Source: Balamuthia mandrillaris
Taxonomy: Eukaryota
Direction of reading: 5' to 3'
Assembly (NCBI GenBank): GCA_031835245.2
Contig: JAVKOQ020000008.1
Location: 62,001-126,000 of the forward strand
DNA length: 64,000 bases
The notes beneath the pieces are model-generated. The model ran no database searches. It saw only the letters and a list, made by a program, of their open reading frames with translations, and was not told the origin of the DNA. Below are positions 18,969 through 54,873 of this stretch, in pieces; positions within the stretch are counted from its first letter, which is position 1, and the number at the start of each line of letters is the position of its first letter. The position numbers were made by a program, and so were the translations under genes.

Positions 18969-19231
18969 ATGCAAATGGCAGAGGAGCTCGCAAGGCGAAG
19001 AGAACGGTTGCGGAGCATAGAGACCAAAGACCGAAGCGTGCCTGTCCTTACCGCCGGTACTTCAGCTCTTGTGAGTTTTCAAAGAAAGTAAAACTAGCTA
19101 AAAGCTTCTTCTTGCTTCAGACGTCTCGCCGGAAGTGAAGCGCCTCAGAGAACACATTAACGCCGTCAACCTCGAAAACTGGTACTCGCAGCTTCAGGTA
19201 TCCTAACTTCTGTTTTCTCTGTTGTTCCTTC

Positions 19232-19268
<37 letters not shown>

Positions 19269-20671
19269 CTCTCTTCTCGCTCTTCTCTCTTTCTCTCGTG
19301 TCTCTCTCTCTCTCTCTCTCTCTCGCTCTTCTCTCTTGTTTCTTTTCTCTTCGTTTAATATCACAAAGCAATACACGTTCGAGACAGCGTTCCTGAACTT
19401 GTCGTTGGAGGAGGCCCGTGCCATCTTAGCCGTTCACAAATGCAATAAAAGTCGCCAACCACAACAACAAGAACAAGGAGCTGAAGCTGCTGAACCACAA
19501 CTGGTGTTAGCATCATTGAAACAACGCATCGATGAAGCCTTGAAACCGTTCGTCATGGAGGAAGGAGCAGGAGGAGCGTTTGTTCGCCTCTCCTCACGTT
19601 CGCCGAAAGATGCCACCATCGCCGGCGAGAAGACCATGCAGCTCTTTGAAGAGGAACTGGAACGAATGGAAGAGAGAGAACAGAAGGAAGAAGGCCAAAG
19701 TGGCATGAACGTGAGAGACGATGAGAATTCGAGGTTGGTGGCTCTGCTTGTGGCTTCCACGAAAGTGATGATGGTTAGAACTGGCGACGAAGCCTTAAAG
19801 CTCTTCATTGTACGCATCTTTAGCTTTGACTTCTTGTTCATCGTTTCCTCTATTCTCTCTTGTTGGTGGGCTTCCTCTTTCTTAAGTTATGTTGTTTATT
19901 CTAGACAAGCGAACGAAGCTATGAAGACTTGGTGCTTGCGCTAGAGTTCCCAGAGAAATGGGACATGAAAGTCATCATCCGTGAATGGGTGGACATTCAT
20001 CCTTGTACGTGTTCTTCCTTTGTTGTTTACTGTAGTCCTGAGGGTAACTCACTGTTATTTTTTCTTTGGAACGTGTGCATCAGCGATGGAGTTTAGAGGA
20101 TTCGTCTACAACAAGAACCTTACAGCACTTTCACAGTACTTTTATGTCGCATTCTTTCCTCAACTGCAGCAGCACAAAGACTCCATCTGTGCCAAAATTC
20201 AAGGTTTTCTCTCGCTGTCTTCTCTCAGTTCTTTCGCCGCTTCCCCGGTCTTGTGGAGGTTCTTTACTTACTTGGTTCATTGCGCTTGCAGAGTGTTATG
20301 ACAAAGTGAAGGGCCTCATTCCAATTGATAACTTCATCATCGACTTTGCCATTCTTGATGATGGCCAAGTTCTCGTTATTGAACTCAATCCTTACCACAA
20401 GTACGAAACCTCTCCCTTCTCTTCACCTCTCTGCTTCTCTGCTTCATCTCTTCTCCTCACTCTTCCCTATTTACTCTTCTCTTTGCATTTCTCATCTTCA
20501 CCCAAAAGTGGAACAGATGCAAGTTTGTTTAGTTGGAAGACAGATCGCAGTGTCCTGGAGGGAGAGGCCCCCTTTGAGTTTCGCTTCCGGGAGGCTCCTT
20601 TCGACGTCAAAGCAACCATCATTGATCTCTGGAAAGATATTGTGCGTGCACCCTCCTCCACCTCTCCCTGA
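18969..20671 (+). CDS. Cdc123/R2K-clade ATP-grasp protein with N-terminal WH2-like motif, paralog 1 (multi-exon)
   Basis: Spliced product: M(Q)MAEELARRRERLRSIETKDRSVP...NLENWY...AFVRLSSRSPKDA...SERSYEDL...IIREWVDI...MEFRGFVY...ALSQY...IIDFAIL...IELNPY...DASLFSW. First intron 19057-19120. Confidence 0.85.
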
Positions 20672-20985: not shown

Positions 20986-22714
20986 ATGTCTCTGGTGGAA
21001 GAGCTGCAACGCAAGAAAGGAGGGCTGCGCACCGTGCAAGAACTCAAAGACCGAAGCAAGCCTCTTCTGGATGGTATCTTTTCTCTTTTTTTTTTTTCTA
21101 AAAAAAATTACCAAACAAACATGGACCTGTCTCGTTTTTTTGCTTGACATCGATGCCGCACCAGAGTGCAACAATAGCAGTAGGTCGGGAGTACAGGACT
21201 TTAAGAACAATATTCACGCCGTCAACCTTGAAAACTGGTATCCTCAGCTGAAGGTATGCATTTCTTTATTATTTTTTCTTTTTTTTCTTATTTTTTTTTA
21301 ATTCACTTTATTTTTTCTTTATTCGTTGTGTTATTTTTTCTTTATTCGTTGGTTGCGTTTAACAAAACAAAACAAAACACTAGGAATACACTTTTGAAAC
21401 AACCTTCTTGAACCTCTCGCAAGAGGAGGCTCGTGCTATAGTCTCCACTTATCAACAAAAACAAAGACAGGAATGCGGCAAAGAACAACCTGCAGCAGAA
21501 GAAGAAGAACAGCTCCATCTTCTATCTCAACTCAAAGAACGTATCAACGACGGAATCAAAGCATTTGTTGGTGGAGAAGGTGAAGACGGAGGAGCGTTTG
21601 TTCGGCTGTCCACTCGTTCGCCCAAGGACGCGACGATTGCAGGAGACAAGACGATGAGACTGTTTGAAGAAGAGCTGGAGCGAATGGAAAAGGAAGAACA
21701 AGTGGAGAACGCGAGAGAGGATGAGAACGCGAGGTTGGTGGCGTTGATTGTAGCTTCCACCAAAGCCATGATGGTTCGCAGCGGGGAGGAAGCGTTACAG
21801 CTCATTACTGTTTGTATCTTTGTGCTTTGTTTCTACATTCTTCTTGTTCTTCTCCGTGTCTTCTTCTTCTTCTTCTTCTTCTTCTTCTTGTTTTTCTTTT
21901 CTTCTTCTTCTTCTTGTTCTTCTTCTTCTTCTCCTTCTTCTTCTTCTCCTTCTTTTGGCTAACGTAGTAATGGCCAGACAAGCGAACGAAGCCACGAAGA
22001 TCTGTTATTGGCATTGGAGTTTCCTGAAGAGTGGGACATGAAAGTGATCATTAGGAAATGGGTCAACATTCATCCCTGTAAGTTCTCTCTCTCTCTCTCT
22101 CTCTGTTTTTCGTTCCTGTTACTAACGAATTACCAGCAATGGAGTTTAGAGGTTTCGTTTGCCATAAAAAGTTTACAGCGTTGTCTCAATACTTTCACAT
22201 TGCTTACTTTCCTCAACTGAAGCAACAAAGAAACTCCATCCTTGCCAACATTACTGGTTTGGTTTTTTTTTATCACACACTTTGTTTTTTCTTTTCTGAT
22301 AACGTGTTCTTCCAATGATAGAATGCTATGCCAAGGTCCAGGATCTCATTCCAGTGGATAGCTTTATTGTGGACTTTGCTGTTTTGAACGATGGTCAAGT
22401 TCTGGTTATCGAACTGAATCCCTTCCATAACTATGAAGGATGGTTCGTCTTTCCTTCTTTGCGTTGTTTCTCTTTCTTTCCTCTTCTTCTTTGTTGGGTG
22501 CTGTTCGTTTCTTGCTTCTGTTCTGTTTTTTCTTACAATCTTTTTTGCCGCACAATTAAACAGCGGAACGGATGCTGGCCTGTTTAACTGGGCGCTTGAC
22601 CGTAAAATAGTGGATGGGGAGGCCCCCTTCGAGTTTCGTGTCAGGGAGGAGGCGTTCGACGTGAAACAGAACCTTATCGGCCTTTGGAGAGACATTGTTC
22701 GCTTCCCAAAATGA
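20986..22714 (+). CDS. Cdc123/R2K-clade ATP-grasp protein with N-terminal WH2-like motif, paralog 2 (multi-exon)
   Basis: MSLVEELQRKKGGLRTVQELKDRSKP...NLENWY...FVRLSTRSPKDA...MEFRGFV...IVDFAVL...IELNPF...DAGLFNW. Intron positions largely match paralog 1. Confidence 0.85.
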
Positions 22715-22950
22715 TGATGCTTCATTCATTCCTCCCTATTTCTTAATTTTTTTTATCTTTTGTTGTTTGCATATTTTTTTTCCCGGTTTGTTATCTCCTT
22801 CTCTCTCTTGTTTCTCTTTCAGAATGCATGTCGTCGTTGCTCTTCCTCTTTCTGCTGTTCGCTTTGTCGTCCGCTCTCCTCTTCGCTTTGGCACTTTATC
22901 GAATACTGTAAAAATAAATAAATTTAAATAATTAATGATTATTTTTTTGT

Positions 22951-22984: not shown

Positions 22985-23672
22985 ATTAATAATTTTTGTA
23001 GACATTCTGCACCGCAGCAAAGAAAGGATGGAAGACGAAGGTCGTCCGGTTCGTTCGACCGTCAACAAGATTGCATGAATCGTCAGCCGAGCGGGGGTAC
23101 CGATGCTTCCTCTCCGCTGGTTTTTTCCTGTAATTTTTTTTATTTATTTTGGCTTGCTTTTCAAACATGTCACAAAACCCCAATTTATTTATTGTCTTTA
23201 TAACAATTTATTTAGTGGATATCTGTGCATTCATGGTTATAGACCATTCTGCCCTCTTTTGTTGCTGACTCCGGTGAAGCTCATACAGAAAAAGGACCGA
23301 GCAGTTCCTTCTTGCTTTTCAAACATGTCTCGCATTCCCAGAACCACTTTGGGCTTGGCATCAGAGAGCAAGGGAAATGAATTGAAGGAAGAAGGGATGG
23401 GAGTGGCCCGTGCCCCGTCCGGAGGGAGAAACGCGGCAAGACAAAAAGGAAAAAGGGAGATATATTGACCTCGTGACTCCACCGCATAGATCCATGGTTC
23501 TGTTGGTGCTTTAGTAATAAGCAACAGATGTTTGTGACCCAACCTATATTACTATACTTGTGTCTCCAAACAGGTATTTAAACGGACTCGAATTGTCTGC
23601 TTCTTCCTTTCCATCACCGACAAACAACCAACCAAACAAACAAACTGAACTGAACTGAACCACATAAACGAA

Positions 23673-25342
23673 ATGCAAACCAAAAGTTTGTTGATGCTGT
23701 TTGCCGGAGCTTTGCTCCTGTGCTGCATGGCTGCCTCCGCGGTCGCAGAAGAAGTCGACTTTGGCGACATTTATGGTTCGTTTGTTCTTTCACTTTCTCC
23801 TGCTTCCCTTTCCACTAACTTAAACCCATGTCTAGCTCGCTCGAGAGAACTTCCTGAGGAAAGAGAGGTGCTGGAGAGCATTACCTTCCAAATCCATCCC
23901 AACCCCAAAGGCATGATGCAACGCCGCACCGTCACCAACTCCACTTTTAACAGCGGCCACTCCCTGACCCTCTCCTTCAAGGCCCTGCAGCGTGAGTTCT
24001 CCGCCTCGCTGCACCACAACGCCGAAGTCTTCCACCCTCAGGCCGTGGTCTCCATTCTCTCCGAGGGCGAGCTGGTGGAGTCCTACGCTCCCGAGAGCAA
24101 TGCCTACCTCGGCGAGGCCACCATCGATGGACGTGAACGAGCCTCTGTCTCTGCCGTGCTGGTGGATCGGGAGAAGGGCATCTTCCACATGAGCATCATG
24201 TCGGAGGAAGAGAGCGGTGATAGCTATGTGGTGGAGCCGACCTACCTTCACCCCACCCTGTCCAAGAGGAGCAGCGAGGACTCGGTGGTGGACATGTTGG
24301 GCAACAACATGGTGGTCTTCAAGGACAACCTCTCCGAGCTCAGCACCATCAATCCTCCTTCTCACGACCAGGACGAACATGCCGAAAGAGAAGAGCAGGC
24401 TGCTATCTCCTGTGGAACAGTTGCTGACGATGTCAGCCAAGACGACAACGAGGAGCAAGAAGGAGAAGAGGTGTTTGGAGATGCCAGCGCTACTCGCAGC
24501 TGCCCTCCCACCCGGACCAGCTATCTCCTCATGGGCGTGGCCACGGATAACCAGTACGTTCGCAAGGCAGGCGGCTCCACCGGCACCCGCAACACCGTGA
24601 CCTACATCTTCAACACCATGCAGGGCCACTACTACCGTGCCGTCCGCAACAAGCCGGTCCTCAAGTCCTTGGTCATCAACACCAGCCCCTCTTCCTCCTC
24701 CTTCTCCTCCAGCTACAACACCAACAGCTGCCCCTCCGACGTGCAGACCCGATTGACCCCCTTCTGCAACTGGAGGACCAAGCAGACCGACCGCTCCATC
24801 GGCTTGTGGCACCTGCTCTCCGGCTGCCTGCCCGACCGCAGCGGCGTGGCCGGCAGGGCCTACTACAGCGCGGTGTGCAGGTACACCACCAGGGGATGCG
24901 GCATCACCGGCTACATGGGCGGCAATGCCCGTTGGGTCATCCCTGCCCATGAGATCGGCCACAACTTTGGAGCTCGCCATTCCAGCAACATCATGGCCGT
25001 ACGTTCCTCTTCTCCTCCTCCGTTTCGTTCTGTTTGCTGTTTGTTAATCCCTTCTTTGTGGTGGCTGATAACCAGGCCTCGGTGAACAGCAGAGCAACGG
25101 CATTCTCCTCCACATCGGTGCGTGAGATGTGCAGCTACACCTTCAGCAACAGCTACCGCATGGCCTGCCTGGTGAACAGTCTGCCCAGCGGCCTGCCCTC
25201 CATCCCTGGCGTTGGCGGCGACAACGACGACGACTGTGAATGCAGGACCACAGCTTCCAACCACAACAACAAGGCCGGCTCTGAGGAGGAGTCCTCTTCT
25301 GCTGCGCCAACCGTTGGACTCATGCACCAAACTTTCTTCTAA
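23673..25342 (+). CDS. Secreted reprolysin/ADAM-type (M12B) zinc metalloprotease
   Basis: Signal peptide, pro-domain with cysteine-switch-like SCGT, zinc motif HEIGHNFGARH, Met-turn (NIMA). Introns 23776-23835 and 24999-25075. Confidence 0.88.
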
Positions 25343-25786: not shown

Positions 25787-26518
25787 CTACGAAAAAGGGT
25801 CAAAAGTGTAGGGGTCTTCTTCTTGTGGCGAGGAGCCGAAAAGATTTGGCTGGGGCACAAAAAGAGTAGGAGAAAAAGAAGAAGGCGTTGAAGCTGATGA
25901 GGAAGACGAGGAGTGCCCGTTACTCTGCGCTCCGTTAGAGGTGTGATTGTGCGCATCAAAAGAGGATGTAGAGGAAGAAGACGACGAGAAGACAAAGAGA
26001 CGAGAAGAAGAAGAAGAAGACAAAGATGACGAAGAAGAAGCAGAAGGAGAAGATGAAGAAGGGACAGCAGGAGAAGAGGAAGAAGAAGCAGAGGAAGGTG
26101 TTGGTAAAGATATGCTGAAAGGAAGTTGATGAGGAGTTCGTCGTTGTCGCTGTTGATCGGCGAGAAAGGTTTGTAGCCCTTCCAACGTCATACAAAGCAA
26201 CTAAATGTTTCAAAAATGTTATAAATAAACGAAAAGCTAAAACAAAAGTAAAATTACCTTTTGGGCTTTGGCGATTGTCTGCATAGGTTTGCTATCAGAG
26301 AGCAAGATTATGTGACGATATTTGGCGATATGAATGAACGACATTTTGAGCGCTGAACGAATGATAGAGGGCACTTCGATGTTGTGGCTGTGAGATTCCT
26401 CCTCTGGAGCGATGGTCTGCACCATTGCCTTTGGAATGGTGCTCGTTGGAGATGAATCTAATGAATTAAAGTGGTAAGCGAGAACGAGGGATAAGAGAAG
26501 TTACAGAAGAGAGGGAGA

Positions 26519-26553
<35 letters not shown>

Positions 26554-27747
26554 AATACATTTGGTAATGTGTTGAACGGCAGCAGATGCTCTTTCAGAAG
26601 TTACTTTGAACTTAAGTTGTTGTACGTCCTCTGATGATATCTTGACCACCCATTCTCGCCCTTCCTTTCCTTCCTGTAACATAAAACAACCAATCAAAAT
26701 GTGTTTAAACAAAGTAACAGAAACTCGAAGGAGAGAAAGAGAACCTCTTCTAATATCCGGACAAGGTCAGCTATCAAGTTGTCTCGATTGAGAATAGTCT
26801 CGATGGGAACTACAATGAGGCCTCCAGAGGGAAACAAGACGTTTTGCGGCGGAGGCGGTAGGAATTGTTTCGTTTTGCAGCAGTTTTCCAGATAGGTCAT
26901 GTCTCGTATAAACAATACCCAGGGGTTCAATCGACACTCTAATATACCTGGTATCTCGCAAATCAGCTTGTGTAACACTTTGCTATTCACCTGAAAGCAA
27001 ACGAGACAAGGAGAGTCAGAGAAAAAGAGCGAGAAAACAGGAGACAAGAGAGGAGATGGAAAAAGTGTTTAGGCACGTACAATAATTAAGTTGATGTCAG
27101 CAGAGACAAGCTCGTTTTCATGCTTGTAAATGGCACCACTCGTTTTAGCCAGAAACGAAATGATGTTGGTGGCCAAGTTCGAATCGGCTATGCCGCCAGG
27201 ATCCGTTGGAGAGAATCCCACAAGGGCGTACTTCACTCCTGGCATAAATCGTTGCTGTTCTTTTGTTGAAAGACTGCCAACTTGTTGTTGCTGTTGTGGA
27301 AGAAGAGCTGCCATCGCGGAGGAGGTGGGTTTGACTTTTGGCTTTGGTTGTAACACGCAAGAAAGTTTTTTCTTATCGTGAGAACTGGGCTCTTGGTCGC
27401 TGTCCAAATAAGCTGGATAGATATACAGATTGCTAGTTGGGCTCCCAAAACACCATATCTTTGGTTGCATTTAAAACAAATGAGTTAACGCAGAACTAAA
27501 AACAAACAAAGAAAACACAAGAAACGCACCGAACGGTTATCCCAGAGAAGAGCGCTAAAGTACTCAAAGCTGCGTCGCTCACGTCCCGGAAGAACTTGCA
27601 ATGGGATGAGTGGATTGGCAGCATGCGGAGAGTTAAATGGCAACGATGCTGCTTTCTCGCCGGTAAGCATGCCTTGCGGCCAGTCACGTGCGTACTTTTG
27701 GCTATCATTGCATAAAAGTTACGGTCGTGAGCTCTAGCAGACTGAAG

Positions 27748-27791
<44 letters not shown>

Positions 27792-29976
27792 ATACCAACG
27801 GCTCTCATCGCTAGGATTGCCTCGAAAAGAGACGGTGATCTCACCGACTGGTTTGCCCTCAAAGCTGATAGTGCCTCTCCAGAGTATCACTGTTTTCGTT
27901 TGTTGTTTGCTGACCGATGTCTTTGTTGTAATTGGAGGAGCATAAAATGAATCGGTTATCGTTGTTGCATTTCCGTTGTTGCTGTTATTGTTGAGAGTTA
28001 ATGTAGATCCAGTTTCGCCCAAAATACTACCCAACACATCGACTTTGCTGCTCGAAGAAGATGTAGAGGTAGTTGGTGTTAATTTAGAATTGGTAGGAGA
28101 AGTAGCCGTTTGTGTAGTCGAACGAAGAGCGAAGTCCAAAGCCAAAGCATTTGCGTTGAGATCGTTGGTTGGAGCATGATAAAAGTCAACAACTGGTAAA
28201 CCGTTATTCGTGGATGATGCTGTAGTTAGCGGTTTAGCGTCTTCTCGACTTGCTGTGCTAGCCATCCAATCCCATCCTCCAGTTTCTTCGTTCTTAAGCC
28301 CATCTTTCTGCACCACATCAACAGAAAAAGGGTCGAATGAAGCAGCAGAAGAAGCATTTAGTGATGACGCAGTAGAATGATTATGATCGGAAGCGTGAAT
28401 GAAAGGAGAGACTAAAGTAGGAACCCGTTTGTTGAGCTGCATGTCGCACTGGTCGCAAAACCAATCGCCTTCCGGTATTTCGTCCAAAGGAGGAAAGATG
28501 CAGTACGTGTGATAGGCTTTGTTGCAGTTCTCCCCATCGCAGAGTAACATGTTTTCTGGATCGTCTTCACGACCACAACATTCGCATTTGGTGTCATCTT
28601 CTTCATCGTCTTCATTCTCTTCTCCGTTTTCTTCAGTTTCCTCCTCCTCTTCCTCTTCCTCTTCTGCGTAAGAGTTTAATCGTGCGCTTCTTCTTGTTCG
28701 AAGGCTTGTTCGGCGTTCCTCTTTCTTTATGCCTGTAGAAACCTGATTGTTTGGTGTTGCTGTTTCGGTTTGTTTTCGGAGCTTTTGTCGAAACTCAGCA
28801 GCCAGTTTTCTTCTTGCTGCTTCCGCTTTCTTTCTGGTCATACTCTTTTGAATCCGTTGTCTCAATCCAGCTTTTCTTCCGGTTTCCATCACCGTGCCAT
28901 CTTCTGAGTTATTGTCTTTGCGATTTGTTCTCTTTTTCCTCGTTTTCGTTTCGTGTTCTTTTGCTTCCTCTTGATTTTCTTTCTCGCTTACACTATTATT
29001 AGAGTTGCCGTTTTCTTGCCGTGATCCACTCGATCTTCTGGAACGTGACCGAGACGTAATCTTTGCATAAATGCGTGCTTCGTCATCAGCATCTTCTTCG
29101 CTTTCAGTGCCATCTCCATTTACTTCTTCCTCTTCCTCCTCTTCCTTCGGTGGCATAAACTCTTCGTCTTCCATTGAATTATTTTCTTCCACTTCGTCTT
29201 GTTCTTCATCTTCTTCCTCCTCTTGCTCTTCTGTTTGTTCTGTTTCTTGCTTTTCCTTTCCTTCTGCATTTTCTGCTTTTTTCTGGCAGCAACGAGGGCA
29301 AAACCAGTCTCCTTCTGGCACGGCCTCCAAAGGAGGATCCAAGCAGAACATGTGCCATCCGCTGTCACAACCATCGCACAGCAACATCTTTTCTGCTTCC
29401 GTATCTTTTTTACATATTTCACAAAGCTTATGAAGGAAGAGAGAATGGAGAAGAGAAAGAGTTAGCTTTAAACATTTGATACCAGTAAGGTTCTACGTAC
29501 CTCATCTTCCTCTTCCTCCTCCTCCTCCTCTTCTTCTCTCCGTTTCTTTTTGGACCTGGCTGCCGCTTGCTTTGAGCGTGTGCTGCTCCTTCGCGCACCC
29601 CCTTTGTTTTTAGCGCCGCCCTGAGTCCTCGAACTTCTTCTGCTCGGCCTTTTTCTTCTAGAGAGCTCTCGTTCCTCCTCTTCCTCCTCCGCCTCTTGCT
29701 CCTCCTCCTCTATCCATCGCTTACGCTTGCTCTGTGTCTGGCCTCCTGTTTGTTTGGTGTTTGTATTTAAAAAAATGTATTAGTATTTTGATCAACAAAA
29801 AAAAACGTAGCGAGACACTTCATCAAACAACAAAAAAAAGTTTTTTGGTTACCTCTACTCTTGGAACGGGTGGAGTAAGGATTCCTTGTGGAGGAAGCAG
29901 AAGATCCACCACCACGGGCCGAAGACGATGCTGAAGCAGTTTGGTCAATCCCATTTTCTTCAGCAGTGTTGCTCAT
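25787..29976 (-). CDS. Double-PHD-finger protein with C-terminal SPOC + DomII + PIN-like module (TASOR/Chp1-like); 3' end uncertain
   Basis: PHD1 CEIC...LLCDGCDSGWHMFCLDPPL...GDWFCPRC and PHD2 CECC...LLCDGENCNKAYHTYC...WFCDQC. SPOC-like ILWRGTI...DWPQG...FEYFSALL...LYIYP. C-terminal LIIVNS...ICEIPGI...LFPSGGLIV...REWVVKI...YRHIILLSD. PHDs are certain; the C-terminal assignment is by recall. Confidence 0.8.
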
Positions 29977-30087
29977 TTTTTTTTTTTCTTTGTTGGAGCT
30001 TTTTTTTTTTGTTTTTCAGCGTGGTGTGCGTGTCGTTGTCTGCTGTGGTTCGATCCGCGTACGGTTTCTTTTTTTTTCAAAAACAAA

Positions 30088-30293
30088 AAAACGTAGTGGC
30101 AGAGAATAGAACAGCACAAAGGGAGCGAGCCTCTTGCTACTTTGTATGCGTGTGTGTAGAGCTCTGTTCGCCACCGCCGCTTGCTTGCTTTCTTTTTTTT
30201 AAAACGTAGTGGCAGAGAATAGAACAACACAGGGAGTGGGCCTCTTGCTACTTTGTATGCGTGTGTGCGTGCGTGTAGAGCTCTATTCGCCAC
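30088..30293. repeat. Two direct copies (about 90 bp, period 113) of a hairpin-ended element
   Basis: aaaacgtagtggcagagaatagaac...gcctcttgctactttgtatgcgtgtgtg...tagagctct(g/a)ttcgccac at 30088-30174 and 30201-30293. Confidence 0.9.
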
Positions 30294-30565: not shown

Positions 30566-30773
30566 TTAGATTTGACGTTTGCCGCTGCCGAAGAGAAGGT
30601 AGAAAAGCAGAGCAGCGGCATATATCGAAGCCGCTATCCAAAAGACAATCTGCCATCTGCTTTCGTCGCTTTCGTCATCGCCCACTATCGCTCCTGTTAA
30701 GGTTGGTGATACGATTCCTGGAATCGTTGCAGCTGTGTTTGGTTTTCAATGTAAGAATTACTGTGCCCTTCCT

Positions 30774-30821
<48 letters not shown>

Positions 30822-32960
30822 TCTCTCTTCTCTCTTCGTTCTCTCTTTTCCACTTCGCGGCTTTGCTTCTCTTCTCTCGTTCTCAAACCTGTGTTGGTGA
30901 GGCCCATAAGAAGTCCAGCATAGTTGGGCGCAATATCCAAGTGATTCACCTGAAAACCAGAACTGCATAGCCCGCTGAAACCAGTGGAAATGGTCATGAA
31001 TGCCACGCTAACCGGCACGGAGTGGCAGTAACCAGCTCCTAAGAGCGTTCCCCCTGCCACAACGAAAGCTAGGGTCTCGAATATCTTTCTCACAATTGTA
31101 GTACTGAATATTTTGCCTTGTTTTAAAAAGAAGATTGAAACAAGAAATGAGAAGAGGAACAACAAAAAAAATACGAAGAACAAGCGAAAGAAGGAAAAGA
31201 AGGAAAAGAAGGAGAAGGAACAACAATAAAAATACCATTACCACCAAGAAGAAGAAGAAAAAGAAGAAGAAGAAGGAGAAGAAGAAGAAGAACAACAACA
31301 ACAACAAAAATGAGAAGGAACGTACGAGTAATGAGAAAGTCGGCCACAATGCCAGAAAGAATCCATGCGAAACTAATTGCAACGTAAGGAAGAACGGCGA
31401 TGAACCCTGCGTGCTTGATATCGAAGCCGAGGACTTCTTTAAGGTACTTTGGCAACCATGTAAGCATTGTATAAAAGGCCTATTAAAAGTACATTAACAA
31501 CGTTAAAGAAGAAATAGAAAAGAAGAAAAAGAACAAGAAGAATTACCCAATTGTTGGCAAAATGGTTTGTAAGAATAGCCCAGAAGGGAAGACACATGAG
31601 AATCTTGCGCCATGGCAATTGCAACAGAGATTCTTTCTTTGGTGGAGGAAGAGAGAACACAATATGCTCATATTCCTTTTTTGAAGAATAAAAATAAGGG
31701 AAAAGGACAGCAACAAAGCAGGAGAGAGAAGACGCACTTTTTGAGAAATAGTGGAATGGACCGCTGGAGAGTCGGCAATAAAGTATGCCCAAGGCACAAA
31801 CCACAGAATGCCTACAATGCCATACACATAAAATACAGCGGGCCAACCACCCAAAAAGCTAGAGTCCACAAGAGCTCCCGAACTGGGAAAGGCAATGATG
31901 GTTCCTACGTACGCTCCGCTGTAACACAGAGAGACCATGCGAGAACGTTCGGAGGGGGGTGCCCATTCGCCAAACATGGCGTGCATCGCGGGATAGGTGA
32001 CGCCCTCTCCAATTCCTTCTGCAACACGCAACGCTATGACAAACCTTCAAAAATTGTTGGGATGAGAACGAAGCAGAGAGCGGAGGAGAAAAGAGAGGAG
32101 GGGCAGTCAACCCTATGTGGAGCTTTGCAGCAATTGGTGTGAGAAGTGTCAGCAGAGCAGTACAAAGAATGCCGATACCATAAACCCACTTGCCGCCAAA
32201 TCGCGAAGCGAACCATCCGCCAGGTATCTGTCATAAAACAGTAACACTATGTCAGTATTATGAACATTTGTCGTCTTCTCCTGTTCATAGTCATAGTGTT
32301 CTGTTCCTTCTTGCTCCATTGAAAACGAAAAGAACCGAAAAGTTACCTGCGTAAGAATGTAGCCAATGAAGAAAGAGGAGAGAACAAAGCCTTGGTTGAA
32401 AGAGCTCCATTTATACTCTTCTCCCATGGGATCAATTGTTATGCTCATTATGACTCGTAAAACTGTTGGAGACAAAAAAATGCCAAACGTAAGAAGAAGA
32501 ACAAGAAAGAAACGAAGAAGAAGAAGAAGAAGAAGAAGAAGAAGAACAAGAACAAGAACAAGAACAAGAACAAGAACAAGAGGAAGAAAAAGAACAAGAA
32601 GAACGAGAACGAGAAGAAGACGAAAGAAATCTGAAAACAAACAAGAACGGAATGACAAACAAGAAAGTGAAGGGCAGCAGTACTGTAGACGTTCAGGAAC
32701 CCAAAGAAACCGAGCAGGACCAGTATGTACCGTTTGGGGAAGTAGTACCGGCCTTGCGCTGGTCTCACTTTGCCATCCCCTTTCCCGGCTGTTGTGCCGG
32801 CCAACAACTCGTCGGTGCCTTCCTCGTCCGCGCTGTAGAGGGTAGCGGAGGAAGTGGCCTCCTCCTCCCCCTCCACCGACAAGGAATAGTACGGTGGTGG
32901 TTGGGGTGTTCTGGCCGCATCCTCATCATGGAACAAAAGCGGAGAGGTCTCCTGCGCCAT
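30566..32960 (-). CDS. MFS anion:cation symporter (SLC17/sialin-like), multi-exon
   Basis: [86 protein letters not shown], last exon ATIPGIVSP...WQIVFWIAA...GSGKRQI*. N-terminal ETSPLL. Confidence 0.92.
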
Positions 32961-33558: not shown

Positions 33559-35076
33559 TTACGTGTAAATATGCTTTGGTGCCGTCGAGTTGCCACCTGC
33601 ATCGTTTTCAAGTCCGTTCACGTCCAAAGTCTCGTTCGTTTTCAAAGTTCCCGTTGTTGTGAAGCTCCTGCGGCCAAAGGTTCCCTCAGGGGTGAGCGTA
33701 GCCGGCTCTCCTTTCTCCGCTTGCTTCCCGTTTGGTTGAGCGTGGGCTCCATAGAAGTGTGCGACCAAGCCCCTTCCGCCGTTGCTTTGCGGTTGCGATT
33801 GCGCAAGGGTTTGTTGTGATGAAGAAGAAGTGCTGCTGTTGTTGGCGTCCTGGATCCGGTGGGTTGCTTGAAGCGGTGAGCTGCGTAACTGCTCTTCTTC
33901 CTCCTTCCAGCTGGTCATGATAGCAGAGGCAGCGGTGTCATGGGATTTGAAGGCGGGAGAAGAGGTGGCGGATGGTGATGAAGAGGAAGAAGGGGAGGAA
34001 GGGGAGTGAAAGCTAGCGTTTGCCTCTGCAAAAAGTTTTTCTCGTGTGTCCTTGTCCAAGGTGTGGACGGCGTTGTGGCGCTCCAGAAAGGCGAGGTCCT
34101 CATCGACCTCCTGCTCTTCGATCGTGTAATTCACTTTCAGCAACGGCGTAGCCGCGGTGGCGCCTGTCCCTGTCACCTTTCGCCGCTCTTCGAGTCTTCT
34201 GTCCTCTTCCTCTTCCTCCTCCTCCTCCTCCTCCTCCTCTGCTTCACCACCGCCGCTGTGCACTCCGTTTGGAAGGAGCTTGGCCGCCGCGTCGTGTGCT
34301 GTGCCTTCCTCTTCCTCTGTGCCTGCTTCTCTCTCCCTAACAACCTCCATACCATCCGCCGCCTCCTCTTCCTCTGCCTGCTCCTTCTTTATCTTATTCC
34401 TCGCAGCACCCATCCCAACCAACGTTGCACCAGAAGCACCCTCAGCACCACCAGAGGACAAGCTAAAGCATGGTCGCTTGGGCGGGGCTCCCTTGCAGCC
34501 CATGCGCCTCCACTTCCTGGCCCTGTAGAGCCACCACTGCTCCTCCACCATCTTTTGCTTCTTCCGGAGGCGCAGCTTGAGCTTGTCCTGGAGGACGTCT
34601 ATGGCATGGCCGTACTCCTCCTCGGCCTGCTGCAGCTGGGCCTGGAAGACGTGCAGCACGTTCTCCTGGCTGTACTGCCGCCACTTCTCGATGCTCCACA
34701 GCTTCTTGCGCTGGAGCTCCGCCAGGTGGGCCACCTTTTGGAGGTATCCCGCGTGCGTGCCCTCCATGATGGCCTGCAGCTCCGCCTGATGTTGCTCCAT
34801 TGGGCTGCTGGTCTCGTGGTGGTGGTGGTCGGTGTTGTCGTTGCCAGTGGCGGCGGGTGGGTGGTGTGGGTTGGAGGAGGAGGAGGAGGAGGCGGCAGCA
34901 GCACTCGCTTCAGCTCCCTCAGCCCCACCACCACCCCCCATGCTGGGCGAGGAGAGGGCAGGAGGTTGGATGATGGCGGAAGGCTTGGAAGGAGGGGGAG
35001 AGGAGGAGGTGGCGGGTCCACCGCCATCCCCTCCTTCCGCCGAGTTGGTAACTTGAGTCCCTTCTTCTCCTTCCAT
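33559..35076 (-). CDS. Sds3/BRMS1-like Sin3-HDAC complex subunit; 3' end may be spliced further
   Basis: ELQAIMEGTHAGYLQKVAHL...QAEEEY...LQDKL coiled coil and later YTIEEQEVDEDLAFL motif are typical of the Sds3 family. Confidence 0.75.
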   Translation of the reverse strand: MEGEEGTQVTNSAEGGDGGGPATSSSPPPSKPSAIIQPPALSSPSMGGGGGAEGAEASAAAASSSSSSNPHHPPAATGNDNTDHHHHETSSPMEQHQAELQAIMEGTHAGYLQKVAHLAELQRKKLWSIEKWRQYSQENVLHVFQAQLQQAEEEYGHAIDVLQDKLKLRLRKKQKMVEEQWWLYRARKWRRMGCKGAPPKRPCFSLSSGGAEGASGATLVGMGAARNKIKKEQAEEEEAADGMEVVREREAGTEEEEGTAHDAAAKLLPNGVHSGGGEAEEEEEEEEEEEEDRRLEERRKVTGTGATAATPLLKVNYTIEEQEVDEDLAFLERHNAVHTLDKDTREKLFAEANASFHSPSSPSSSSSPSATSSPAFKSHDTAASAIMTSWKEEEEQLRSSPLQATHRIQDANNSSTSSSSQQTLAQSQPQSNGGRGLVAHFYGAHAQPNGKQAEKGEPATLTPEGTFGRRSFTTTGTLKTNETLDVNGLENDAGGNSTAPKHIYT

Positions 35077-35948
35077 AGTTATCGAAAAGACTTTTTGTTT
35101 TGTTGTTTTCTGTTTTTTTTTTTTCTATTCCGAAATTATTTTTTTGCTTTTTAGATAATTTTATTTATTATTATTTATTTTTATTTTTCTTTTCTTTCGG
35201 TTCTTTTTAAATGTTTGGATGTTCTCTTCTCTTATACTCTTATTTTTTTTTAAACTTTAAAATAAACAAATAGACAAAAACAAGTTAAGCGGAGATATGT
35301 TATGGAACAAAAAGAAAAGTGTGGATTATGGTTTTTTTTTTTCCAACAACAAACAAAGGAGCGGTTTATTTTGGTTGCTTTGTTTTGTTGTTTTTGTGGG
35401 TGACACCGTCCAATCGATAACAAGAAGAAGTCAACTTGCAAGTTCACCGTTTCATTTATTTTTGTTTGGTGTGTTCCCAACTATCACGTACCAACATGGA
35501 AGAGAGACAGAGAGCTTGACCGAGTGAGTGCTGCTGGGTGAGCTCTATTGTCAAAGAAAAAAACGCATGGGGGGGGTGGAGAAAAGAAGAGAGGCATAGA
35601 AGCGGTTCATCGCTGTGCTCTCTCCTCCTGCTGGGTCCCGTGTGTAGTGAGTTTCAGCTTTGATTTCTGATTGAGAGTTTAAAGTTTGATTTTTCATTAG
35701 TCACGAAATTTGTCTTGCAATCGTTTTTCATAAATTCTCCTTAATGCAAATCACTGGTTTTTTCGATTTTCCATTGGCCGCTATTCTTTTAGCCAATTCA
35801 TTTTCAGATATTCGATCGATCTCGCCTAAAGGAAAGAACATTTTTAAGGAGGCGCGTAACGAACAAGAAGAGGTCTCTAGCACTGCTTGGGAAGTCCGAC
35901 TCCTGCGTGCCCGCTAATGCGGAGATTGTCAACCATCGCGAACCCCGA

Positions 35949-37373: not shown

Positions 37374-38707
37374 TTAACTGTTCTCTTGTATCCATTTATA
37401 AAGATCCAAACTTTTGGTGTGCTTTATCACCAACTCACGGTGCCAAGGGCACCCATGTTTCCTTGCCCACCTAAGCACTTTCAAATGTCCACCTCTCACC
37501 GCCTCTGTGCAAGTGGCTTCATTCCACGGGCACCCATTCTCACGTGCCCATTTCACGACTTTAAGTTGCCCGCACCTGGCGGCCTCACTGCAGATTCTCT
37601 CATCCCATGCGCACTGCGCCGTCTCTCTCAGCCATTTCAACACTTCCAACTGTCCACTGGCAGCTGCAAGACGACAAGCGTCCTCCTTTGGCCAGTGCAA
37701 GTCTTGTTGATGAGCCCATTGCAAGACGTTCAGGTGACCATCCTCTGCTGCCCGACAACAAGCCAGACCATCCCACAGAGAAGGATCTTGTTGGACGATC
37801 CACTGCAACACCTCCACATGACCTCGCTGCCCTGCACAGATACAAGCCCATTTTTCCCAACGGCAGCCCTGTTGGCGAGCCCACTGGAGCACTTCGAGGT
37901 GGCCAAACGCGGCAGCGCTGGTACAAGTAGAGTATGTGAGAGGACAACCTTGTTTGCAAAGCCATTTTAATACTTCCAGGTGACCTCCCTCTGCTGCCAC
38001 CTCACAGGATGCACCTATTGCGTGTTTGTTTTTTTGTTGGTACCAAAAGGAGATACAAACGCTCTATAAAAAAGAGTAAGCAAACCCCAAGGGCATCCAT
38101 TCTCATGAGCCCACCGCAGCACTTCTAAGTGCCCGTGCTTGGCTGCTGCAGTGCAAGTAGTTTCATCCCAATGACATCCGTTCTCCCGCAACCACTTCAA
38201 AACTTCCAAGTGACCTCCCCTGGCTGCACTGGCACAAGTCCAACTATCTATCAACAAACCACCTTTTTGCATCAGCCACCGCAACACCTCGAGGTGGCCT
38301 TTGGCTGCAGCGTTGTTGCACATCTGCCTCTCATTCCAAGGACAGAGTTGCTCATGCAGCCATTGCAACACTTCCAAGTGGCCTCCCTCCGCAGCCTGAG
38401 AGAAGGTCCACTGGTCCAGGCGCCGGTTCTCTTCATTGACGTGCTTGAGCACCGCCAAGTTCCCTTGGGCCGCAGCTTCGCCAGAGGTCTCGTTGCATAA
38501 GTGGTAGCCGTTGTGTAGCGCCCATTGAAGGTTGCCCACGGAGCTGCACGCCCACGGGATCGAGAGCCTGCGTTTGTTGTTGTCCACCTCCGGCGGGAAA
38601 CAAGTGCAAAAGAACCATCGACGGCAGGTCCTGGCGGCCAACCCCACCGCTCCTTTGGGCAGGAAGCTTAGGACATGCGCGACCAGCTCTGCCGGTAGTT
38701 CTTCCAT
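37374..38707 (-). CDS. F-box + ankyrin-repeat protein (GHLEVLxWxxxxGCPW type)
   Basis: F-box MEELPAELVAHVLSFL...TCRRW followed by many AAxxGHLEVLxW repeats. One intron, 38085-38015. Confidence 0.9.
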
Positions 38708-38958: not shown

Positions 38959-39209
38959 TTTTTCTCATTTCTTTCTGTCGATTTTTTCGATAAACATTTC
39001 ATAATTATTAACAAAAACAAAAAAAGAAAGTTAAAGAAAAATAATTTGGATTTGGTGTTTGATTCAAAGGTGACCTTTTCCTTCCTTCCCTCCTTCCTTT
39101 CCTTCCTTCTCCCCTCCCTCCTTATTCTTCTTTCTTCTTCATGCACTCTTCTCTCCCTCACGCTTTCTTTTTCTTTTTTTCTTGAAACACACCCAAAAAA
39201 AATAAATAA

Positions 39210-42200
39210 ATGAACAAAACATCATCGTCAAATGCAGCGGCGGCACCAGCAGCAGGAGGAGGAGGGAAGCACGGCGGCAGATCGAGCAGCAGCAAAAAAA
39301 TGCCAAAGAAAAAGACGGAAATAAAGGTGCAGATCGAGCTCACCCTCAAGACGCTCTACAACCTCTCCAAGGAACTGAACGGCAAGGAGGTGGCGATCGC
39401 GTGGCGGCGCGGCTCCAAGGCGGAGAACAGGGGGGAGAGCAAGACCAGCGCCATCCGCAGCGGCATCGCTGTCTTTGGGGACCAGTTCACGCTGCACTGC
39501 ACCCTCTTTCAGGACCCCTCTTCCCTCAAGTACGAAGGCAAGAAACTCGAACTCCTGGTGAAACTACAGGTTTCGTTTCCTCTCTTCTTCGCTCTTCTCT
39601 CGTTCTCTCGTTCTCTCTTCTCGCTTCTCTTCTCGCTTCTCTCTTCTTTCGTTCTCTCGTTCTCTGCTTCTCTGCTTCTATCTTCTCTGCTTCTCTCTTC
39701 TCTCCCTCTCCTGTGTCTCTGTCTCTGTCTCTGTCTCTGTCTCTGTCTCTGTCTCTGTCTCTGTCTCTGTCTCTGTCTCTGTCTCTGTCTCTGTCTCTGT
39801 CCTCTGTCTCTGTCTCTGTCTCATCTCTCTCTCTCCCCGCTCTCTGGTTTCTCTTTGAGGTTTTCATATTTGCTGTTCTTCTCTTGCATTTGTTGCTTTA
39901 AAAGGGAGAGGGAAGCAGTTCCTCATCAAAAAAGAGCACCAGTGGGGGAGGTAAACCGTTGGCCAAAGCGGTGGTGGACTTGACCGAGTTTGCGACCAGC
40001 GGCATCAAAGAGAACATCTCCTTTCCTCTCGTCATGAAAGGAGAGCATCACAAGAAGAAAGGCAGCAAAATCATTGGCCGGGGAAAGAGCAAGTCATCCG
40101 CTTCTTCTTCCACTCCAGGAAAGGACAAAGGCAAAGTTCCAGCGATCAAAGCAGACGTGAAGACCGTTTGGACGCATTACAACAAGAAAAAGATTGCTAC
40201 CAAAGCAGAGGCGGACTCCCTCGCTGCATCTTCTTCATCATCTTCTTCTTCTGATCCAACAGCAGCAACGACGATTACAGATGCCTCCACTCTGTCATCT
40301 TCTACAAGAAAGAAGGACACAGTGAAGATAGATGGAGTGGAGCATGACTTGATAACGGTGGATGAGGGAGGTGCCTCCGAAGAGGAGCAAACTACTGTTG
40401 CTGAGTTCACCGAAATGGAAGACGACACCGAAAGCGAGTTTACAGAGTCATCAGAGGATGATGATGACGAAGATGAAGATGATGGCTTCAAGAAAAAAGC
40501 AGTAACGAAGAAGAGAGCAGAAAAGAGCGATGAAGAAGACAAAAGTGTTGAAACACTTTCGACGTTAACAACTGCATCCCTTCGTAACAGCAGCAGCATA
40601 GAAACGACTTCTTCTGGTGGTAAAACGCTTTCGCCTTCCCGTAGTTTCGAAAATGTTGCTGTCGCAGAGAAGGTAACAAAAGGGAAAGAAAAGAAAGAAG
40701 ATGGAGCAAAGGAGGATGGTCACGCAAGAAACTTGATGATAGCCTCAACTGCCGTTCCGAAAGATTTACTTCTTCATGTTGCTGAAGATGAAGAGAAGAA
40801 TGCAACAATCAAGAAACTTCAAGCTGAGTTGAAAAAAACTCAAGAAGAGCTCCAACAAATGGAGAAAGAGAGAGAGAAAGACGCTCAACTGAATGACGTC
40901 AGCTCAAAACAAGAAGTGAAACAGCTGAAGAAAGAAGTTCTAGAGTTGAAAAAGTTTCAAAAGGAGGCGCAAAAAAGTCAAGAAGAGCTCAAACGATTAG
41001 AAGCGGAGTTGAAGGAGGAGAGAAGAAAAGTGGAAGTGGAAAAAAGAGAAAAGAGGGACATGGAGCGAGATATGAAGAACATGGAAAGCAAATTGCGAAC
41101 GGCAGAGAAAAAAGTGGACGAGTTCGAGTCGAAGAAGAAGAAACAGGAAGAAAGCAATAACACCAATAAGAAGCTGACTAAGAAAGAGTTAATGGCGACT
41201 GCGGCAGCTGCAAACGAAACGATCGCAGCAATGAAGGAGGAGAAAGAGAGAAAAGAAAAAGAGTTGGAGCAAGCCAACAAAGAAAAAATCAAACTATCGA
41301 AAGAGGCGGAACTACTGCGTCAGCAAACAGAAGAGCAATCAGCGGAACTGGAACGAAAGGCAATGTTGTTTACCGCGTTGAGAGCAGAGTTTGAGAAGTT
41401 GAAAGAAGCCACTACCATGTCCTCTGCTTCGGCTGCTGCTGCTTCCGAAACTTCTGCTTCTGCTGCGTCGTTGTTGGAAAAACGAAATGCAGAATTAGAG
41501 ATTGAGATAGCGAGAGTAAGCGCAGAATTGGAGCAGACCAACTTCATTGTGGTGGAAAAGGACAAAGAACTGCTGCGATGGAAAGACAAAGTTAAAGCTC
41601 TCGAGCTCGAAGCGAAGAGAGTGGAGGAGAAATGCAATGCTCGTGTAATGGCCGCTGAAGCAAAAGCCAAATCAGCGACTCTGAAAAAGGATGCAACAAA
41701 GATAGAAGAAGAAAAAGAAAGAGAAGAAGAGATAGCACGGTTGAAAGAAGAACTAGATGATAGAAAAACAAAAATAGAGGAGCAAAAGAAACGCATAGAA
41801 CGTTTGGAAGAACAGCTTGAAGAACTTCAAGAACAACAACATCAACATGATGGAGGAGATCAAACCATGAGCAAACAGGCAGATGAAGAGGAAGAGGAAG
41901 AAAAAGAGAGGTTGAAAGAGATGAAGAAGAAAGCTGAAAAGGCCGTGAAGCGTTTGGAAGAAGAGAATCGAGAAAAACAACTGACAGTAGAACGCCTTCA
42001 AAAACTACTCAAAAAATTGGAGGAAGAGAGGAAAAAAGAAAAGAAAGAGAAGAAAGAAGCAAACCACAAAGACGAAAGAGAAGACGACGATGAAGAAACA
42101 AAAGTCATTCAACAGTTAACAACACAACATATTTATTGCATGAAGAACGCTTTCTCGAAGGAAGGAACTCATATCTCAGCCGCTCAACTGTGCAAAGAGT

Positions 42201-43539
42201 TGGTGGAAATGAGAGCATTAGAGGATGACCCACCACACGAAACTCTGTTGGCAGCTATCATTACGTCGTTGAAGAACGTCTCGACTGCTGCTCGCGAGGA
42301 TAACGTTATGCTTGTTCGTTGGCTTTCGTTTGTTTGTCACTTTCATGAACAGCTGGAGAATGAGGTTGGGACCAGCGAAGATGAGAACAGTGGCGACATT
42401 CCACGAAATGGCATATGGATACCTCCTTCGCGTCGAGTAACAGCGCTTGTACCGACGAGCGAGAACGGAGATACGAGTCACCAATACGATGACGAAGACG
42501 ACCAAGATGAGGAGGATGACGATGCTGTCGCTCAGTTCTTCAAACGGCTTGAAAGGCTCATATTCGAGATCTACTCCAACTTTGTCTCCAACTGTTTAAA
42601 GGTATCTATCGCTTCTATGTTATTCTTCTTTTTATTCTTACTGTTTTTTTTTTAAAAAAAAAAAGAGCATAAACACTGTCGTAGTTGGTGGAATACTTCA
42701 ACAGGAATTATCTATCTTTGCTACTGATGGGTATGGCTACTTTCCTCTTATCATTTATTTTTGCCACACAAATAACAAAAAACAAAAAAAAAACACCAAA
42801 ACACAGTACTTCGATAGCTGGACACGAATCTTCCAACAAAGAGTTCACCTCCGTGTTGACAAAAGCTCTAAAGCTGTTGCGACAACAACATCTCTTCGAC
42901 TCTGTCATTCAACAGTTCTTTTGTCAGCTGTTCTACAACACAAACGCCCGCATCATCAACACTTTAGTTGACAGGAAGGAGCTGTGCACCTGCGGCAACG
43001 GCTTCCAGATAAAACTTGGTCTCTCACAGCTGGAAGAATGGGTTTCTAAGCAAGGAAGAAAGCTTTTCGGTGTGGCTAGGTTTGTTTCTCTTCTTCGCTC
43101 TCTTCTATCTCCTCTTTGTCTCGCTCTCGCTCTCTTCCCCCACGTTTTCTCTCTATTTTCCTATTCTGAGAAAATTGTATAAATAGACAATATTTAAGCC
43201 ACGCGACGGAAGCGGCGAATGTGTTGGTGGTCGATAAGGAAATGTTCGGCGATGAAGCCATGATAGCCTCCATCTTCCCCACTCTCTCCGTGTTCCAGAT
43301 TTATCACCTATTGGACACCTTTCAACCTGATCAGTGCGTTTGCTTCTCTTATCTCCACTTTTTTTCGCTCTCTTGTTAACGAAATGCAATAACATACAAA
43401 CAGGTTTTCTCCGGAAGGAGTATCATCATCGGTGCTTCGCCACTTGGAAGGACTGTGCTCCAAAGCCAAACAACATCAATCCACTTCGCTAAAACTAAAC
43501 GAGACAGCGCTCTTAACTTTACCCACGAACAAAAGATGA
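39210..43539 (+). CDS. NT-type C2 + long coiled coil + DIL (dilute) domain protein, paralog A
   Basis: NT-C2: VQIELTLKTL...AIAWRRGSK...FTLHCTLFQD...KKLELLVK...AKAVVDLTEFA. Coiled coil. DIL: QQFFCQLFYNTNARIINTLVDRKELCTCGNGFQIKLGLSQLEEW...AANVL...LLDTFQPD. Stop TGA 43537-43539. Confidence 0.88.
39713..39800. repeat. (TGTCTC)n intronic microsatellite
   Basis: Perfect hexamer run seen directly. Confidence 0.95.
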
Positions 43540-52059: not shown

Positions 52060-52096
<37 letters not shown>

Positions 52097-52422
52097 TGAA
52101 GAAGGCGAACCTCCTGCAAAGCAGTTGAGCTGTAATCAAATGTTTGTCCCTTAACTTCATCTCTTAAATAGTTCCGAAACAATAACAAGCTTTGCACTTC
52201 ATCCAAGTTCTTTTTGTGGTAGAAAAGGAGGCATTAGCGTTCGTAGTAAGAAGGAGAAGACCAGAACAAACAAAAGAGAAGAAAGCAGAAAAGCTTAGAA
52301 AAAAAGAGAGCAGAAGGAGACAAGAGAGAGGAGAGAGGACTAAAGAACGAGAGAGTAAGAAGCAGTGAACGAGAGGAATGAGGAGGAAGAACGAGCGAAA
52401 AGGAGACAAATAATAATAGGAA

Positions 52423-52470
<48 letters not shown>

Positions 52471-52867
52471 TAGTACACACCAACAGACGACTGATCTTCT
52501 TCACAAAGTCTTGTTGGTTCTTGTCCACAGGATAGGTCTTTCCTCCATACTTCACTTTTCCCGATTCCAACGCTTGCAGTGACTCCTTCGACGGCGGCTT
52601 GTACGACTGCAGCATCGCCAACAACCGCTGATAGTTCCTCTTCAACAGAGAAGCCTTTTTTTTTTTGAGCAACAGAGAGAGAGTGAGAGAGAGAGTGAGG
52701 GATGCGTTTCCAAACTAGTCTTTAAAAAAGTGCAACAAAACAGGGTAGGTAGTAACCATTCCTTCAGGGCTGCACGACCCATCTGCACGCTCCAACGTTT
52801 CCAACAAGCGGCGATTCGTCCGGTCGAAGCGACCCAACGGCCCGCTGGCCGCCGCTTCCCCCGCCAT
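43591..52867 (-). CDS. NUP188: Nucleoporin Nup188, multi-exon
   Basis: SYKPPSKES, ISRLL-LDEVQS, IADYYNDERLCLLRC, GPVLLAWA, ECPTGRYPVTLSFL, FDTWRY...ERWQIG, QPGLALLF. Long alpha-solenoid spanning about 9 kb. ATG at 52867. Confidence 0.85.
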
Positions 52868-54664: not shown

Positions 54665-54873
54665 TGATGCTTTAGTGTTCCGCTAGTATACAACTACAAG
54701 GAGTCGAGGCTTAGATGACTGAAAAAACAAAGACTTCTTTCGTTGTTTCGTTGACTTTCTTGTTGTTTCTTCGTTGTTGAAATTAATTAGTTGCCACGAT
54801 AATATCCACGTTCTTTTTCTTCATTGCGTGGCGACGCGAGAGAGCCTTTTCAAACAAAAACAAAAACTCGCGT

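Follow-up and report, generated by a model that had tools for sequence, protein, structure and literature searches.

Might amoebae possess a version of the scaffold with which yeast and humans keep repeats, transposons, and viruses silent? The question is raised by a minus-strand gene at positions 29976-25787 of a 64,000-nucleotide stretch of Balamuthia mandrillaris DNA (assembly GCA_031835245.2, contig JAVKOQ020000008.1, positions 62,001 to 126,000), hereafter the window. A preliminary description made from the sequence had taken its product for a scaffold with the SPOC-DomII-PIN layout of human TASOR, a core component of HUSH, and of Schizosaccharomyces pombe Chp1, which belongs to RITS, with tandem PHD fingers replacing the chromodomain reader. 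Both Chp1 and TASOR serve as scaffolds in silencing (PMC7532188, PMC7619638). Splicing of nine exons yields a protein of 1174 amino acids (aa) with two PHD fingers and an ordered C-terminal module (aa 633-1055, ~420 aa) made of three contiguous parts: a SPOC-like domain, a domain II, and a PIN-fold domain. The homology of this module to the Chp1/TASOR core is, in our assessment, very probable, and the silencing scaffold likely exists in amoebae in an ancient version that has been overlooked.

The C-terminal module is shared by an amoebozoan protein family

With the segment encoded by exons 5 and 6 (aa 725-932) as the query, HMMER returned 19 hits at an E value of ≤0.001 among 1.84 billion representatives; the query contained an intron at the same site as the apparent read-throughs P0001 to P0003 and other short hits, whose ranks are possibly inflated. 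One hit, P0010, proved to be a false positive with cadherin repeats and was removed, and P0005, an isoform of P0020 of lesser length, was not counted toward conservation. Ten of the 19 hits were looked up, of which six are without a species and four are named: Soliformovum irregulare, Thecamoeba quadrilineata, Pellita catalonica, and Paradermamoeba levis, all of them Amoebozoa and together spanning Evosea and Discosea. The transcript-derived Thecamoeba protein (P0011) combines two PHD fingers with the module, and the Soliformovum protein (P0020), also transcript derived, has one PHD finger, a weak Tudor-like match in the place of the second (P0005/P0020 aa 152-201), and then the module. The reader end of the family is variable.

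The spliced window protein aligned with the Soliformovum and Thecamoeba proteins at E values of 5e-55 and 5e-52, respectively, colinearly over ~420 aa and with 31% identity to the Thecamoeba relative. This colinear match reaches well past the query segment and thus provides an independent check on the splice model. The module was also found at six metagenome loci out of 47 pattern matches, five of which look like one species or close strains. Locus L002 encodes two PHD fingers and the module, with reading-frame breaks where introns 3, 4, and 5 lie, so that a chromatin reader is fused to the module in all four lineages with a visible N terminus (window, P0011, P0020, and L002). Subprofiles built without the window scored its three parts at 30.3, 86, and 156 bits, where 500 shuffles reached no more than 7.5, 4.6, and 3.5 bits, respectively; the middle score of the window is partly circular, as that part served as the query. 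At this level, a spliced gene with PHD fingers belongs to a family conserved across Discosea and Evosea. In viral contigs, none of 81 pattern matches was confirmed as a family member. Word-based protein searches, nearly blind in this setting, retained none of 22 candidates with exon 6 and, with the family alignment, one of 7,975 (itself) and 3 of 7,996, with no TASOR or Chp1 among them; the ESM Atlas gave no usable match to exon 6.

The modeled domain II and PIN domain of a relative match the Chp1-Tas3 core

Domain II (aa 795-901; exons 5-6; 26838..27248, minus strand) and the PIN-fold domain (aa 903-1055; exons 6-9; 26147..26834, minus strand) provide the link to Chp1 and TASOR. The Thecamoeba module was modeled with AlphaFold2 from 12 aligned sequences (model me75daadf844e), with a predicted local distance difference test score (pLDDT) of ~90 for residues 141-389 and mostly <50 for residues 1-140. 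Foldseek placed the Chp1-Tas3 core (3TIX) as the top PDB match of this model, with E values of 5.0e-10 and 5.8e-9, the next entry scoring 1.1e-4. VIA-align over 48,161 representatives likewise ranked 3TIX first (Z 16.5; root mean square deviation, 4.6 Å; 234 aligned residues), ahead of a next match at Z 13.2, and superposed model residues 131-386 on Chp1 664-958 at 12% identity, covering domain II and the PIN domain in one alignment. Domain II of the model directly precedes the PIN domain and is arranged as in 3TIX, an arrangement to which the window protein is tied by the colinear alignment. The preliminary description had staked its claim on a profile or structural match of the C-terminal region, and the AlphaFold/Foldseek analysis of the Thecamoeba relative supplied one.

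The matches that followed cover a single domain each. Over model residues 244-386, these were the PIN domains of Nmd4 (Z 13.2) and SMG6 (Z 13.0), along with SMG5 and Rrp44 (range, Z 10.7-13.2), and over residues 138-243 they were BRCT domains, such as those of PARP4 (Z 12.0), ECT2 (Z 11.5), and XRCC1 (Z 11.3), in a range of Z 9-12. Domain II of the amoeba family is therefore predicted to adopt a BRCT fold and, by transitivity, domain II of Chp1 and TASOR is probably a BRCT domain as well.

Profile scans of the 19 hits point to TASOR. Pfam PIN_TASOR (PF24630) matched four of them (E values of 4.8e-6, 2.8e-5, 0.0011, and 0.054) and TASOR_alpha-beta (PF23314) matched two (0.0021 and 0.026), with both models present in the expected order in P0016. 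PIN_TASOR outscored the generic PIN_4 in P0011 and P0013, and no BRCT family scored. Each match is weak alone; however, two TASOR-named models out of 24,736 falling on adjacent segments in the right order would be hard to ascribe to chance.

In the PIN domain of the window protein, strand 1 ends at what is usually the first catalytic position, and no acid stands there; the residues that come after the last conserved strand are variable. Acids are conserved at aa 914, 920, and 989-991, and the acidic patch at aa 989-991 is, together with R1004, K1008, K1016, and R1018, nearly invariant in eight aligned sequences. As mapped by PIN motifs rather than by superposition, this pattern makes a binding surface more likely than a nuclease, i.e., the domain is likely noncatalytic.

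The first domain of the module is SPOC-like

A conserved, beta-rich first domain of ~140 aa (aa 633-774; exons 3-5; 27309..27899, minus strand), i.e., the part scored at 30.3 bits by the family subprofile, is located where the SPOC domain of Chp1 lies. Its short motifs resemble those of SPOC proteins. Two low-confidence models (pLDDT of ~50 or lower), when read together, suggest seven strands in SPOC order, with the strand/helix order taken from FPA (PMC4981400). A model of this domain only (P0008 aa 1-120, with part of strand 1 missing and the last strand poorly aligned) had a mean pLDDT of 51 and best matches at a Foldseek E value of 2.4 and a VIA Z of 3.6, which is evidence neither way, and no Pfam SPOC match was found in P0011, P0020, L002, or the window exon pieces. 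We consider a SPOC fold probable for this domain, although unproven. The proposed SPOC-DomII-PIN likeness was thus supported for DomII-PIN, through the Chp1 structure match and the weak TASOR Pfam matches of relatives, whereas its SPOC component is unproven.

The PHD fingers resemble readers of unmethylated H3K4

Both PHD fingers are significant in Pfam (E 4.6e-24). PHD1 (aa 125-169; 29289..29423, minus strand) is placed by its PDB sequence matches in the KDM5-PHD1/BAZ2/CHD4 class and PHD2 (aa 404-450; 28446..28586, minus strand) in the KDM5-PHD1/ATXR5/UHRF class, the top matches of the two fingers being KDM5/Lid PHD1, BAZ2A/B, CHD4, ATXR5, and UHRF1/2. PHD fingers of the KDM5-PHD1/BAZ2/UHRF class bind H3 tails unmethylated at K4 and are devoid of a methyl-lysine cage, whose Trp, where present, stands two residues before the zinc-binding His. 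At this position, all seven family PHD fingers examined have Gly or Ala, with no cage Trp. The window PHD fingers hence resemble, by their sequence, readers of unmethylated H3K4 rather than of methylated H3K9, and as fingers of this type they are no like-for-like replacement of the chromodomain, contrary to the preliminary description. The two fingers that it called tandem are indeed present but not adjacent, being separated by ~235 aa of a charged, low-complexity linker.

The remainder of the region up to aa 632 is either charged or poor in hydrophobic residues and looks disordered, as does the tail past aa 1056. Within the disordered linker, a short Trp motif (GGWDW plus four residues; aa 506-514; 28254..28280, minus strand) is kept in L002 (~1917-1945) and L006 (~816-845) though the surrounding linker has diverged, and is absent from the Thecamoeba (P0011) and Soliformovum (P0020) proteins. 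It could be a docking site for a partner, Argonaute-hook-like or other.

Gene structure and RNA support

The start codon at 29976 and the stop codon at 25787 had been placed exactly in the preliminary description, and the motifs that it quoted are all found, in the same order, in the spliced protein. The nine exons (25787..29976, all on the minus strand) join into one frame with a single stop. The eight introns are all GT-AG and 57 to 107 nucleotides long, and the frame is truncated whenever any one of them is retained; for introns 3, 4, 7, and 8, the frame reaches full length with only one of the acceptors tested. RNA-derived contigs skip seven of the eight introns. Specifically, introns 1, 4, 5, 6, and 8 appear as joints in contigs of run X1, and introns 3 and 7 are crossed by single X1 contigs at the modeled positions, one contig bridging intron 3 and another introns 6-8. 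These contigs differ slightly from the window and are taken as RNA on the strength of intron skipping, none of the listed records that contain the stretch being labeled as RNA. Raw reads gave thin support, with one or two in each run for introns 1, 4, and 5 (two reads of X4 at intron 1) in the 3 to 5% of each run that was read. Joints inside low-complexity tracts were rejected as cross-mapping.

Exon 1 (29853..29976; aa 1-41) carries the start codon and is of low complexity, and exon 2 (29501..29745; aa 42-123) encodes basic and acidic tracts that are likely nuclear localization signals. Exon 3 (27796..29426; aa 124-667) encodes PHD1, the charged linker, PHD2, a linker rich in Ser, Thr, and Asn, and strands 1 and 2 of the SPOC-like domain in one frame. 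It is visible unspliced as a 595-aa stop-to-stop frame, so that the introns hide only the C-terminal module. The remainder of the module is distributed over exons 4 (27530..27701), 5 (27081..27458), 6 (26745..26990), 7 (26559..26673), 8 (26258..26457), and 9 (25787..26200), the last of which ends with a Ser-rich disordered tail (aa 1056-1174) and the stop codon (25787..26146). An imperfect direct repeat of ~110 bases (30038-30290) lies just upstream of the start codon, likely in the promoter.

Comparison with known architectures

The protein shares with Chp1, the core of RITS, a histone reader at the N terminus, a long linker, and a contiguous three-domain core of ~420 aa, but it has two PHD fingers instead of a chromodomain (plus RRM); no Chp1-named Pfam family appeared in scans of the relatives. 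Likeness to TASOR and TASOR2 comes from the relatives, which match PF23314 and PF24630 in the right order, below cutoff. In contrast to TASOR, there is no DUF3715 pseudo-PARP domain, and the ~20 aa between the SPOC-like domain and domain II leave no room for DomI or for the ~600-aa linker of TASOR. The reader, which in HUSH is supplied by MPP8, is built into the amoeba protein. PHF3, DIDO, and Bye1 similarly have a PHD finger upstream of a SPOC domain, yet the amoeba protein differs from them by the lack of a match to their TFIIS-like domain (TLD), the class of its PHD fingers, and the extra DomII-PIN. Proteins with single BRCT domains (PARP4, XRCC1, ECT2, and Fcp1; Z 9-12) or with the PIN domains of Nmd4, SMG5, and SMG6 (Z 10-13) match at the level of the fold, in one domain each; their architecture is unrelated, and there was no sequence-level BRCT match. 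As far as the sequence tells, the protein is neither a TASOR, with no pseudo-PARP domain and no DomI, nor a Chp1, with no chromodomain, but a new architectural variant of the shared core.

Proposed role and alternative explanations

Several observations weigh against placing the protein with Chp1 and TASOR, or against reading a silencing function from that kinship. All TASOR Pfam matches (five of the 19 hits) fall below the curated cutoff of 27 bits, the best reaching 26.8 and 18.6, and 14 of the 19 hits match neither TASOR model. Exon pieces of the window, scanned separately or via two in-frame introns, match no TASOR, SPOC, or PIN model; the link runs via relatives at 30 to 40% identity, and the folded protein is a relative, not the window's. 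In the structural match, 12% of the residues are identical to those of Chp1, the family profile fails to find Chp1 by sequence, and PDB sequence searches gave chance matches only, whether the query was exon 6, the read-through of exons 5-6, or either of two family profiles. Any BRCT+PIN fusion would tend to put 3TIX first. The SPOC fold is unconfirmed, the fold searches with the low-confidence model having found no SPOC domain. No chromodomain match was obtained in window exons 2-9 (exon 1 being 41 aa of low complexity) or in full-length relatives, nor any DUF3715 or PARP match in the window exon pieces or full-length relatives. Finally, repression of transgenes by TASOR needs DUF3715, SPOC, and DomI, with DomII/PIN dispensable in a human reporter assay, and the PIN domain of Chp1 is needed at subtelomeres only (PMC7532188); the part that the amoeba protein shares is thus the one dispensable for transgene silencing by TASOR.

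With these points taken into account, the balance leans modestly toward a nonenzymatic scaffold that would sit on nucleosomes and bring in silencing factors at repeats or foreign DNA. From the anatomy, which is what we observe, we infer targets, partners, and silencing. Judging from the closest solved structures, the PHD fingers would dock on H3 tails unmethylated at K4, i.e., on chromatin lacking the active-promoter mark. In Chp1, the barrel and domain II hold Tas3 between them, and by analogy a Tas3/Periphilin-like partner may sit in the cleft that separates the SPOC-like domain from domain II. The PIN domain would act as a binding surface, not as a nuclease, and its surface and that of the BRCT domain could recruit RNA-decay or chromatin-modifying factors. 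The putative complex might couple recognition of nascent RNA to H3K9 or DNA methylation and to RNA decay. More tentatively, and with the odds rather against it, the SPOC-BRCT-PIN core of RITS and HUSH could be one silencing platform from the amoeba-fungus-animal ancestor, with BRCT as domain II of Chp1 and TASOR and with lineage-specific sensors: a chromodomain in fungi, a pseudo-PARP domain plus MPP8 in animals, and PHD fingers in amoebae. The amoeba form would read unmethylated H3K4 and seed silencing de novo on new transposon or giant-virus DNA before H3K9 methylation.

The same ancestry is compatible with a different use, which we consider unlikely but the most serious of the alternatives, namely, that of a general RNA polymerase II elongation/RNA-processing adaptor like PHF3, DIDO, and Bye1, with no special role on transposons. 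The combination of PHD and SPOC is the hallmark of those proteins (PMC10111866), TASOR, too, is found in association with elongating polymerase and with CCR4-NOT, and the BRCT domain of the C-terminal domain phosphatase Fcp1 is among the matches of domain II (Z 10.4). However, no TFIIS-type domain was matched in exon 3, P0011, P0020, or L002, the region between PHD and SPOC being rich in Ser, Thr, and Asn. Furthermore, the PHD fingers of Bye1 and DIDO bind H3K4me3 via an aromatic cage (PMC10111866), whereas those of the window are of the KDM5-PHD1/BAZ2/UHRF class, and PHF3-type proteins are without DomII-PIN, separate TLD-SPOC proteins existing in amoebae.

Less probable again is a chromatin-tethered adaptor for nuclear RNA decay, whose PIN domain, either like that of Nmd4/SMG5 or an active nuclease, would pass nascent aberrant RNA to a helicase or exosome without writing heterochromatin. 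The best PIN matches after Chp1, i.e., Nmd4, SMG6, SMG5, and Rrp44, and the nearly invariant acidic and basic residues described above speak for it, but the two-domain Chp1 match beats every single-domain PIN and PIN_TASOR beats PIN_4. Such a role is compatible with the silencing scaffold and may be part of it.

An independent BRCT+PIN fusion that arose in Amoebozoa for DNA repair or replication, with the likeness to Chp1/TASOR reflecting convergence of common folds, appears somewhat more doubtful still. It would fit the many repair BRCT domains matched by domain II (PARP4, XRCC1, ECT2, and TopBP1; Z 9-12) and the low identity to Chp1. Nonetheless, none of the Pfam BRCT families gave a score, in contrast to TASOR_alpha-beta and PIN_TASOR, which both match P0016 and do so in the expected order; both domains superpose on Chp1 together; and a third, beta-rich and SPOC-sized domain stands at the place of the SPOC domain of Chp1. 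In phosphopeptide-binding BRCT domains, a Ser or Thr precedes the strand-1 glycine, whereas the residue before this glycine (G805) is hydrophobic in eight of eight aligned rows. The last alternative, in which the PHD gene and the C-terminal exons are separate genes, or a pseudogene, that an erroneous splice model has united, is highly improbable: no RNA contig over the whole gene was found, raw-read depth is low, and no intron 2 joint was seen in the RNA data examined, but PHD1, PHD2, and the first strands of the module share one exon, single contigs bridge intron 3 and introns 6-8, and the same fusion recurs in transcript-derived proteins of two other amoebae and in L002, all of which place the PHD fingers and the module in one protein, as first proposed.

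Relation to earlier work

Among the papers listed by literature searches, no title or abstract opening describes such an amoeba protein or family; protist members or the BRCT fold may already appear in supplements (the Douse alignments and the Schopp/Appel phylogeny), subscription journals, or InterPro. Likewise, no link between TASOR and BRCT was found in passages of one of the four papers that use both words. The DomII-PIN architecture of TASOR has been described for vertebrates (PMC10578480), and Chp1/Tas3 have been reported absent from Mucor (PMC12863538). So far, the likeness between RITS and HUSH has been drawn from fission yeast at one far end and vertebrates at the other; an Amoebozoa-wide family with a Chp1-like layout and TASOR-like sequence would add an outgroup. 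If this holds, the core dates to the amoeba-fungus-animal ancestor, and common descent is favored over convergence. In Acanthamoeba, heterochromatin is targeted to viral inserts and mobile elements by an unexplained route (PMC12210455), in which the amoeba protein is a candidate to take part. The DomII/PIN of TASOR is conserved without a functional explanation, and the predicted BRCT fold and the invariant surface residues may offer a handle on it.

Neighboring genes

No functional link between the neighboring genes and the PHD-module gene was found in the window. Directly upstream lies an intron-split major facilitator transporter gene (30700-32950, minus strand), followed, 3.6 kb upstream of the PHD-module gene and on the same strand, by a GC-rich gene for an Sds3-like subunit of Sin3-HDAC (33559-35124), a proximity that is probably due to chance. 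On the other side, a convergent gene (23649-25342, plus strand) encodes an M12B/reprolysin-like metalloprotease with a signal-like N terminus, its long exon having 61% GC versus ~45% around it. Two tandem paralogous genes (19207-20671 and 21384-22725, plus strand), whose first-exon frames have no Pfam match, have products that resemble CDC123-like ATP-grasp (R2K) proteins. A long multiexon gene (43591-52721, minus strand) encodes a helical protein with no Pfam match in the three frames scanned, possibly a Nup188/Nup205-type nucleoporin. Two similar large genes (39206-43182, plus strand; 57206-62147, minus strand) combine NT-C2, a long coiled coil, and DIL; Pfam confirms NT-C2 and DIL for the second only. 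Two further genes (37374-38707, minus strand; 53294-54682, plus strand, the latter in one long open frame) encode proteins with F-box-like and ankyrin-like repeat regions, presumably of the kind known from amoebae and their giant viruses.

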